Of a stretch of DNA of 64,000 nucleotides, positions 30,659-64,000 are shown one piece after another (the stretch's first letter is position 1; each line of letters starts with the position of its first letter). The stretch comes from Candidatus Bathyarchaeia archaeon (GTDB taxonomy: Archaea > Thermoproteota > CALKCG01 > B24): positions 192,001-256,000 of the forward strand of contig JAVZJD010000001.1 in the NCBI GenBank assembly GCA_038870975.1, in the 5' to 3' direction. Under the pieces are notes generated by a model, which saw only the letters and a list, made by a program, of their open reading frames with translations, was not told where the DNA came from and ran no database searches. Made by a program: the position numbers and the translations under genes.

Positions 30659-30756
30659 GCCGGGGTAGCTCAGCGGGCTAGAGCGCCAGACTCATAATCT
30701 GGAGAACCCCGAAGCCCAGGGTCCAGAAGCCGAGGGTTCGAAACCCTCCCCCGGCA
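30659..30756 (+). tRNA. tRNA-Met(CAT), elongator, with a 24-nt intron at 45/46 (30705-30728)
   Basis: Acceptor GCCGGGG/CCCCGGC-A; D stem GCTC/GAGC; anticodon arm CCAGA-CTCATAA-TCTGG; T arm GAGGG-TTCGAAA-CCCTC; removing 30705-30728 restores a 5-nt variable loop AGGCC. Confidence 0.92.
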
Positions 30757-62321: not shown

Positions 62322-63665
62322 TCACTTTTTGAAGAAGAGCGGTAGATACTGTGCATGAGCATTGAGAAGGTCATCTAAGAGTTTACCAACTTCATCCGGT
62401 TTCAGTTTCGAGGCAACTTGTGGATCTTGAAGGAGCGCTTGAAACGCTAAACTTCTATCACCAGTCAAAGCAGCTTCAACTGTAAGTCTCTGAACTTCAA
62501 TATGATTACTTAACACTGCTGCCAATGGCGGTGGAAGTTTACCCACGTGTATTGGAATTATTCCATAACCTCCTACTACAGAGGATACTTCTACAATGGC
62601 ATCGAACGGAAGGTTTTCTATCGCTCCTCTGTTGAGAGTATTGACTACAAATACTTCGTTCCTGTTCTCCAAGAGTGCTTCAATTATATCTACTACTAAT
62701 ACGGCTTCTCCGCTAGGTAAAACATCGAGGCTTAAATCCCTCATGCCAGTAGCCATATCTTCGACAAGCTTCTCCCATTTAGCTGTTCGTTGTTGCTCCT
62801 CCACCATATCATGGACTTTCAAACCAAATTTCATTTTGAGCCCCTGTAATCTACCCTTATACTCCTCTTCTAAGCCACATAGAAATGGGAAGAATTCGGT
62901 CCAGTGGGACCAGCAGTATGGAAGCACACCATAGTTTTCTACAAATAGCTTCTCAACTAGGTTTGAAGATCTTTCCTTTACTAATTGAAGACCGTCTCTC
63001 CCATCTTTGAGTTTTAAGCTTAATATAGCCGCACAATGGTTTATACCTGCTGCTGGTGCAGGTGTTAAAATATCCTCAGGATTTACGCCTACAATTTCAG
63101 CTAAATAGTTGGGATTTGACGGTATTGAAGAACACGTGCAAAGACCTACGACTTTTATCTTTGAATTCCTAACCATAGCCATACAGTTGGTGGGCACTGG
63201 ATTGGTATAGTTGAAGACCCAAGCCTTTGGAGACACCTCCTCCAATTCTTTTGCCATTCCCACTAGAACAGGTATGTGACGAAATGCACGCATTATACCG
63301 CCTGGACCTACTGAATCACATATGGCCATGTAAACTCCATATCTTGCGGGTATCTCTATATCGTACTCCCAAGCTTTTAAACCGCCGACTGCTATAGCGG
63401 TTATAACAAAGTCTGCGTCTGTTAATGAGTCTAACCTATTTGTCGTAGCTTCGACTTTCAGAGAAGCATTTGTCTTTTCGATCAGTCTTTGGGAGAGCCG
63501 GAACATTACGTTAAGCCTATGCTCATCTATGTCCATTAGACATATTGTACTATCCTGTAGAAGCCTAGACTCGATAAACAACCTCATGAGCTGAGGTGTG
63601 AAAGTACTGCTTCCACCACCTACTATAGTTATTTTGTAGCCCATATTGAGAGTATATTCAATCAA
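62322..63665 (-). CDS. GH4 family NAD-dependent glycoside hydrolase (alpha-galactosidase/glucosidase-like)
   Basis: KITIVGGGS, DSVGPGG..RA.R.IP, NYTNP, GLC, AGINH, N.GAI.NLP. Confidence 0.9.
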   Translation of the reverse strand: MIEYTLNMGYKITIVGGGSSTFTPQLMRLFIESRLLQDSTICLMDIDEHRLNVMFRLSQRLIEKTNASLKVEATTNRLDSLTDADFVITAIAVGGLKAWEYDIEIPARYGVYMAICDSVGPGGIMRAFRHIPVLVGMAKELEEVSPKAWVFNYTNPVPTNCMAMVRNSKIKVVGLCTCSSIPSNPNYLAEIVGVNPEDILTPAPAAGINHCAAILSLKLKDGRDGLQLVKERSSNLVEKLFVENYGVLPYCWSHWTEFFPFLCGLEEEYKGRLQGLKMKFGLKVHDMVEEQQRTAKWEKLVEDMATGMRDLSLDVLPSGEAVLVVDIIEALLENRNEVFVVNTLNRGAIENLPFDAIVEVSSVVGGYGIIPIHVGKLPPPLAAVLSNHIEVQRLTVEAALTGDRSLAFQALLQDPQVASKLKPDEVGKLLDDLLNAHAQYLPLFFKK

Positions 63666-63703: not shown

Positions 63704-63767
63704 GCGGCTCAGACAAATGCCTTACGTTCATAGATTTGTCACAGTAACTTTGACTCATCACAGCCGC
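63704..63767 (-). ncRNA. box C/D guide sRNA (double guide, predicted 23S rRNA targets)
   Basis: Minus strand reads GCGGC-UGUGAUGA(C)-GUCAAAGUUACU-GUGA(D')-CAAAUCUAUGAA(degenerate C')-CGUAAGGCAUUUGU-CUGA(D)-GCCGC; terminal stem; both guides complementary to conserved 23S segments. Confidence 0.85.
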
Positions 63768-63789
63768 TAGATTGATTATACTTGAACTA

Positions 63790-63797
63790 TTTTAAAA
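63790..63797 (-). promoter_or_regulatory. probable TATA box for the C/D sRNA
   Basis: Minus strand AAAAACC-TTTTAAAA (BRE-TATA-like), 23-30 nt upstream of the sRNA stem. Confidence 0.45.
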
Positions 63798-63861
63798 GGT
63801 TTTTACATGTAAACGGTAAAGATTTATTTAAGAAAGCATTTTCATAGTCTCTGAGGAAGTC

Positions 63862-64000
63862 TTGACCCTAGAAAGCCTAGGAAGATCCCTTAGAGACGCA
63901 TTAAACAAAGTTTTAAAGGCATCTAGGATGGATAAGGATCTAGTAAAAGGTCTAGTAAATGATCTTGTCAGAAGCCTTCTTCAGGCCGATGTCAAAGTAG
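63862..64000 (+). CDS. srp54: signal recognition particle protein SRP54, N-terminal part (runs off window)
   Basis: TTG start; MTLESLGRSLRDALNKV...LVRSLLQADVKV matches the Ffh/SRP54 N-domain LLxADV motif. Confidence 0.85.
   Translation, partial: MTLESLGRSLRDALNKVLKASRMDKDLVKGLVNDLVRSLLQADVKV

Follow-up and report, generated by a model that had tools for sequence, protein, structure and literature searches.

The minus strand at positions 63767-63704 of the window (the whole 64-kb stretch of DNA analyzed here, from a hot-spring Bathyarchaeia archaeon) very probably carries a separately transcribed gene for a 64-nt box C/D sRNA, a dual guide whose predicted targets are two adenosines of the host's 23S rRNA, A2090 and A2065. 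Read from 63767 to 63704, the element runs GCGGC-U-GUGAUGA-GUCAAAGUUACU-GUGA-CAAAUCU-AUGAACG-UAAGGCAUUUGU-CUGA-GCCGC (Table 1). The 64 nt from stem to stem fall within the ~50- to 70-nt range of archaeal box C/D sRNAs, and the size of the element, its spacings, and the 12-nt length of both guides are canonical for archaea. A full box C/D layout on the minus strand had been described in the first-pass annotation of this DNA, and we find the stem and the C, D', and D boxes where it placed them, together with a C' box that it left unnamed. Folded as a single strand, the RNA forms the terminal stem alone (z = -0.66), the outcome expected for a guide RNA that is scaffolded by proteins.

The genes for those proteins are present in the host genome, which encodes fibrillarin (G000:C2:668838-669497, 313 bits), Nop5 (G000:C1:606499-607176, Nop match of 252 bits), and two open reading frames of the L7Ae family. 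Fibrillarin and Nop5 genes are adjacent in many archaea; here, they are on different contigs.

Table 1. Coordinates of the predicted sRNA gene and of the promoter-like block upstream of it
Feature	Position in window	Strand	Basis or remark
Promoter-like element, ACC + UUUUAAAAUAG	63787..63800	-	Direct sequence reading
TATA-like core, UUUUAAAAUA	63797-63788	-	Centre ~26 nt upstream of first stem base
Terminal stem, 5' arm, GCGGC	63763..63767	-	Partner 63708-63704
Box C, GUGAUGA (consensus RUGAUGA)	63755..63761	-	UGA core invariant in 22 homologs
D' guide, GUCAAAGUUACU	63743..63754	-	Pairs with 23S 2061-2072, helix 69 loop; CA-AGUUAC core invariant across homologs
Box D', GUGA	63739..63742	-	UGA invariant in 22-sequence alignment; 12 nt after box C
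D'-C' linker, CAAAUCU, loop of the K-loop	63732..63738	-	Length and sequence free to vary among homologs, unlike the guides
Box C', AUGAACG, degenerate, UGA core kept	63725..63731	-	Exactly 12 nt upstream of box D
D guide, UAAGGCAUUUGU	63713..63724	-	Pairs with 23S 2087-2096; AAGGCAUUUG invariant in 22 homologs
Box D, CUGA	63709..63712	-	Sequence and homolog alignment
Terminal stem, 3' arm, GCCGC	63704..63708	-	Pairs with 63763-63767

Gene setting

The sRNA element lies between a divergent srp54 gene, which starts at 63862, and a downstream gene resembling glycoside hydrolase family 4 (GH4-like), 40 to 60 nt away. The promoter-like block upstream of the stem (Table 1) would work as an archaeal BRE/TATA promoter; three congeners have a block of the AAA(R)CCTTTTAGA type at an equal distance upstream, amid neighboring bases that diverge. 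The GH4-like gene has a TATA-like box of its own, located after the sRNA element, and its start is most likely the ATG at 63644, as in relatives. Together, the TATA-like block, the separate TATA-like box and start of the GH4-like gene, and the divergent start of srp54 suggest that the sRNA is an independent small gene. No T-run terminator was found after the stem.

Some further observations concern the flanks. The mechanical open reading frame of the GH4-like gene has a TTG start at 63665 (minus strand, 63644-63665), and the proteins of relatives start MG(Y/F)KITI...; the ATG at 63644 follows a TATAAATA box by ~28 nt, which suggests a leaderless mRNA. Just upstream of the TATA-like box of the sRNA element, the A-run at 63800-63804 has one A fewer in two independent hot-spring DNA assemblies, a difference that comes either from variation between strains or from a homopolymer error made in assembling the window. 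The DNA runs that contain this stretch are hot-spring metagenomes.

The same setting leaves some room for a different reading, in which the sequence between srp54 and the GH4-type gene is no guide RNA but either a box-like motif that arose by chance or a K-turn with a regulatory role. L7Ae-bound K-turns in mRNAs have reportedly been described, the distance to the GH4-like gene is short, and the adjacency to srp54 is kept within the organism's family. Contigs of the two metatranscriptomes among 23 sequencing runs cover the flanking genes, up to 63620 and from 63892, and show no transcript of the element, although contigs of this sort are uninformative for a 64-nt RNA. Against this reading stand the TATA-like box that the GH4-like gene has after the element, as well as the guide pairing and the phylogenetic distribution described below, and we judge it highly improbable.

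Guide pairing with the host 23S rRNA

The host genome (1.85 Mb, 2 contigs) has a single 16S gene and a single-copy 23S gene (G000:C1:501119-504203, minus strand), the latter on the same contig as the window. Against CAAAUGCCUU (LSU 2087-2096), the D guide makes 10 contiguous Watson-Crick pairs at guide positions 2-11, plus a terminal G.U at position 12, and its position 5 (63717) stands opposite A2090, which is thus the N+5 target. The D' guide is paired with AGUAACUCUGAC (LSU 2061-2072) at 11 of 12 positions; its position 5 (63747) stands opposite A2065, the corresponding N+5 target, and an A.C mismatch at position 8 (63750) divides the contiguous pairs into 7 + 4. The proposal of a double-guide box C/D sRNA is therefore borne out on both arms by the host's own 23S rRNA. 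The complementarity that had been proposed for the D' guide, to AGUAACU(U)UGAC, was right as to the helix 69 loop but not in every base, as the host has a C where the "(U)" had been put, and this C gives rise to the mismatch.

Alignment with E. coli rrlB (NC_000913) identifies A2065 with A1913 (helix 69 loop, second A of GUAAC) and A2090 with A1938, the A immediately before m5U1939, in agreement with the sites that the first-pass annotation had derived from the D+5 rule. Using random 12-mers from the host genome, we estimated the chance of a D-type match at p = 0.004 and that of a D'-type match at p = 0.009; for both to fall less than 100 nt apart by chance, the probability is ~1.5e-6. Chance is thus unlikely as an explanation, and matches of both guides in the correct register also count against a regulatory K-turn.

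A further possibility is that the guides act on some other target (tRNA, 16S rRNA, or mRNA) and that the 23S matches are secondary, given that tRNA targets and orphan guides are common among archaeal sRNAs (PMC4644070). The host genome offers little to sustain this. A perfect complement of the D' guide core was found nowhere else in it besides the antisense of the sRNA gene itself, the three other sites that complement the D guide 10-mer are neither rRNA nor predicted tRNA genes, and the 16S rRNA is without a match to either guide. We therefore find this possibility scarcely credible and take the 23S rRNA to be the probable target of both guides.

We also looked across the genome for similar elements. 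A strict scan for the full layout over all 1.85 Mb returned 4 candidates including the window sRNA and is too strict to serve as a census. A relaxed "half-unit" scan, tried as an sRNA finder, was set aside: it gave 116 rRNA-matching units versus 75 with reversed rRNA, and the extra units that we spot-checked were in apparent coding regions. No second guide for A2090 emerged from this relaxed scan of the genome. Outside the window, on the minus strand at G000:C2:585656-585717, there is a second clean C/D layout (GGGAUGAUGA, guide, CUGA, UUUGAUGG, guide, CUGA), whose D' guide makes at least 9 pairs with the 16S rRNA near position 1630; it is probably another sRNA gene.

How the RNP would act can be outlined from the general scheme for box C/D RNAs. 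L7Ae would bind the C/D K-turn, closed by the GCGGC/GCCGC stem, and the C'/D' K-loop, after which Nop5 and fibrillarin would assemble on both C/D and C'/D'. Each 12-nt guide would then pair with the nascent 23S rRNA, and fibrillarin would 2'-O-methylate whichever target nucleotide faces guide base 5, counted upstream from box D or D'. Methylation would in this way fall on A2090 for the D guide (E. coli A1938 and yeast A2281; H70/H71 junction) and on A2065 for the D' guide (E. coli A1913 and yeast A2256; helix 69 loop, bridge B2a). As the two sites are 25 nt apart, one RNP would be able to hold both strands at once, and it probably aids the local folding of domain IV. We deduce transcription, assembly of the RNP, methylation of both adenosines, and chaperone activity from sequence.

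Conservation across Thermoproteota

BLAST searches against relatives returned copies 93 to 94% identical in three congeners and an 84% identical copy in another family, in which the stem is GGCGAC/GUCGCC instead of GCGGC/GCCGC. The exact pattern of the two guide cores in their correct registers occurs at 21 loci among 185,579 species genomes, all of them in Thermoproteota; these loci span Bathyarchaeia, Nitrososphaeria, Nitrososphaerales, Aigarchaeota, and Thermofilaceae, and three are those of the congeners. A covariance model (R1) built from 22 homologs was searched in 151 genomes sampled across the phylum. It matched 92 of the 151 (83 of the 133 high-quality genomes and 50 of the 78 genera), among them all 19 genomes of family f5, which has AT-rich flanks. 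Almost always, a matched genome has exactly one copy, a distribution that speaks against a chance or regulatory motif.

Among the homologs, variation is found in the linker, the flanks, and the last three positions of C', and none in the guides or the box cores; within box C', UG is invariant and the next A nearly so. In 23 homologs, 91% of the cells of the stem are paired and 5 of the 6 pairs show changes on both sides; none of 500 shuffles reached the observed covariation score, and pairing collapses when the partner strand is slid. We also considered a compensatory pairing between C' position 6 and D' position 1, which three sequences fit and others fail, and we make no claim for it.

The two guides differ in their constancy. 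The D guide is almost fixed, and the D' guide stays on helix 69 with a shifting register. The register UCA(A/G)AGUUAC + N + NUGA, directed at A1913, is found in Bathyarchaeia, most Nitrososphaeria, Aigarchaeota, and Thermofilaceae. In the AT-rich family f5, the register is CAGAGUUAUAU + CUGA, with a one-base insertion, and points to A1912; in families f7, f16, and f20, it is GAGUACUCCCGAC and points to roughly G1906. Family f12 has a D box that seems to be shifted by two bases. Such drift agrees with the literature, in which conservation is described as stronger for the region than for the individual site (PMC6009581).

Adjacency to srp54, which the first-pass annotation had suggested as a place to look for homologs, holds within the window organism's family only (genera g1 and g2); the homologs that we retrieved from other families had no srp54 next to them. 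Those homologs keep both guides even though they are away from srp54 and from the GH4-like gene, which argues further against a regulatory element tied to either neighbor.

Relatives of the window organism also provided a side observation on the 23S gene. Some have an intron between ...CUCUCAA and GGUAGCC, a position that falls exactly between the sRNA's two targets; the window genome is without it. The intron is 47 nt long in the congener G002 (L085, G002:C49, ~1454-1500) and ~560 nt long in G006 and G007 of the sister genus (L084, G006:C66, and L083, G007:C5, ~940-1500). GGGAG at its 3' end is a mimic of the H69 stem's 5' strand, and a bulge-helix-bulge structure would therefore be in competition with H69. 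All three intron-bearing genomes keep the sRNA with both guides, and an improbable but interesting reading is that in them the sRNA holds the two exons together and releases the 3' strand of H69 for the bulge-helix-bulge splice structure.

The fixed A.C mismatch in the D' duplex

The A.C mismatch is not peculiar to the window. Bathyarchaeia-type homologs all read CAAAG, with A at D' guide position 8, and the 23S rRNAs recovered from those lineages all read CUCUG, not CUUUG, a reading made in 12 genomes (given as five families, f1-f4, f17 and f22). The mismatched C of the 23S rRNA is the equivalent of E. coli 1916. Other classes have a perfectly matching CAGAG, with G at position 8. No alternative target that would explain the mismatched A was found in the host genome.

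One explanation would be that the element is a real C/D sRNA of which the D guide alone methylates, at A2090, and that the mismatched D' guide serves as a tether or folding chaperone on the helix 69 loop without methylating A2065. The persistence of CUCUG in every 23S rRNA recovered from the lineages that carry the mismatch is compatible with this, as is the drift of the D' register and boxes among lineages next to a nearly fixed D guide; moreover, dual guides have been described whose one weakened arm is proposed to help with folding only (PMC4644070, PMC6009581). Several features nonetheless favor a functional D' arm. Watson-Crick pairing is perfect over positions 1-7, which comprise the methylation site and six neighboring pairs, the GA of the D' box and the 12-nt spacing are retained, and the mismatched A is conserved across several families, which argues for selection on the D' guide. 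In vitro, archaeal sRNPs tolerate single mismatches away from the target nucleotide. Single mismatches were likewise accepted for double guides in the survey of PMC4644070. On this balance, we consider a D-only methylation guide unlikely. With its contiguous pairs split into 7 + 4, methylation of A2065 is less certain than that of A2090, yet with the target pair and its neighbors intact it is still favored, and we retain the dual-guide reading, with less confidence in the D' arm than in the D arm.

Relation to known archaeal sRNAs

The arrangement of the window sRNA has ample precedent. In the survey of Dennis et al. 2015 (PMC4644070), 262 of 489 sRNAs are "double guides," with two guides to sites within 100 nt of each other, and in Pyrobaculum the share is ~45% (Lui et al. 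2018, PMC6009581). One RNA serving two nearby sites is thus normal in archaea and no special state. The location is familiar as well, since helices 68-71 are an archaeal methylation hotspot with dense predictions near E. coli A1912, which is A2178 in that alignment (PMC4644070). The dual-guide families of Pyrobaculum have the same architecture, with two sites less than 100 nt apart and helix 69 named as a clustering region; an exact site seldom persists outside the genus there (PMC6009581), in contrast to the window family, in which the guides are retained from class to class within the phylum.

The closest described relatives are sR125 of Sulfolobus acidocaldarius (Sac) and sR109 of Ignicoccus hospitalis (Iho), which are colinear box C/D sRNAs like the window sRNA and were detected by RNA-seq. 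Their predicted targets are listed as 23S A2204 (D) and G2172 (D') (PMC4644070, supplementary tables). In that alignment, A2179 is E. coli A1913, and A2204, 25 nt further on, is E. coli A1938. Their D guide, (A)AGGCAUUUGU (also given as AAGGCAUUUGU), is base-for-base identical to that of the window sRNA and has the same predicted target. Their D' guides are in helix 69 too, making them double guides on the same rRNA patch, but these guides (GAGUACUCCCG / UUACCCCCG) target G2172, on the 5' side of the H69 stem (~E. coli 1906), and not A1913. The window D' guide lies 7 nt further 3', on the H69 loop, and this A1913 register is the one that it shares, in distinction to Sac sR125 and Iho sR109, with most homologs from Bathyarchaeia, Nitrososphaeria, Thermofilaceae, and Aigarchaeota. 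The G2172-type guide GAGUACUCCCG is itself present in families f7, f16, and f20 of the phylum. Sac sR125 further differs from the window sRNA in that its D box is CAGA and it lacks a clear terminal stem. The colinear layout and shared D guide indicate that the window sRNA is an ortholog or a variant of this described group.

For the second site, Iho sR91 has a predicted target at 23S A2179 (PMC4644070), the A1913 equivalent, as does the window D' guide. Iho sR91 is, however, a separate sRNA, and its second guide is directed to G2211, not to the A1938 equivalent, so that Ignicoccus would serve the two sites with two RNAs. Both targets have accordingly been predicted before in Crenarchaeota, never in a single RNA among the seven species of PMC4644070.

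Rfam searches of the 64-kb window at gathering thresholds gave no match to a C/D family; the sole hit was a 98-nt tRNA at 30659-30756 (+), long enough to contain an intron. At E <= 10, the sRNA element drew generic sub-threshold SNORDs only (best 21.9 bits versus 38) and no archaeal sR family, those of Pyrobaculum and Pyrococcus included. No Rfam family covers this RNA. Its novelty is limited by the sRNAs already described for the sites, Sac sR125 and Iho sR109 (A1938) and Iho sR91 (A1913).

Eukaryotic equivalents and ancestry

Both predicted sites have well-described eukaryotic equivalents. In yeast 25S rRNA, this region carries Am2256 (guided by snR63), m5C2278, and Am2280 and Am2281 (both guided by snR13), as confirmed by snoRNA deletions (PMC5199042), and the equivalents across eukaryotes are Am2522/Am2547 in Dictyostelium, Am2256/Am2281 in yeast, and Am3739 (U46)/Am3764 (U15A/B) in humans (PMC8817022). 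The yeast sites and their guides, which the first-pass annotation had named, are thus correct. The distance between the two sites is 25 nt in yeast, humans, Dictyostelium, E. coli, and the window archaeon (A2065/A2090), and it is on this constant offset, along with known H69 correspondences, that the equivalence of A2065 and A2090 to the yeast sites rests. The table of a 2024 review lists a Pyrococcus abyssi counterpart for neither site (PMC11542601).

Yeast snR13, human SNORD15 (U15A/B), and Arabidopsis AtU15 guide the Am equivalent to the window's D target. The Rfam alignment of SNORD15 to the element covers the D guide and box D only (63709-63722), with 13.3 bits against a gathering threshold of 75, so homology beyond the guide is undetectable. 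snR13 also directs Am2280, and snR13/SNORD15 are eukaryotic, longer, and effectively single-site, unlike the window sRNA. The helix 69 loop Am equivalent to the window's D' target is guided by yeast snR63 and human SNORD46 (U46). SNORD46 gave no match even at E <= 10, and its gene is separate from that of the A2281 guide, unlike the dual guide found here. We know of no fixed A.C mismatch in the eukaryotic snR63/SNORD46 guide duplex.

The window sRNA had also been offered as a possible ancestral state. In its fullest form, this idea would take the sRNA as a phylum-wide, vertically inherited dual guide and would have the methylation pair, at exactly the two eukaryote-wide Am sites that flank bridge B2a, predate eukaryotes, with one RNA possibly split later into snR63/U46 and snR13/U15. 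What speaks for it is the coincidence of the sites. Short guides can converge, however, and the D' register drifts; the exact two-guide pattern is confined to Thermoproteota among the species genomes searched, with no link to the eukaryotic stem. We regard the ancestral-state idea as unsupported and this scenario as quite improbable.

Significance

The window sRNA is a good annotation of a known kind of RNA and leaves the understanding of C/D RNPs as it was. Its value is in large part one of annotation: it provides a well-supported C/D sRNA for Bathyarchaeia, a lineage with essentially no curated guide RNAs, and a covariance model that finds one copy in ~60% of the genomes sampled from the phylum. 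The family, whose guides persist across classes, is also a counter-example to surveys that stress how rare conservation beyond the genus is. The fixed A.C mismatch raises a mechanistic question about its role that is directly testable. Finally, both predicted sites are near-universal eukaryotic Am sites at the subunit interface, which makes them good positions at which to ask which ribose methylations are ancient.
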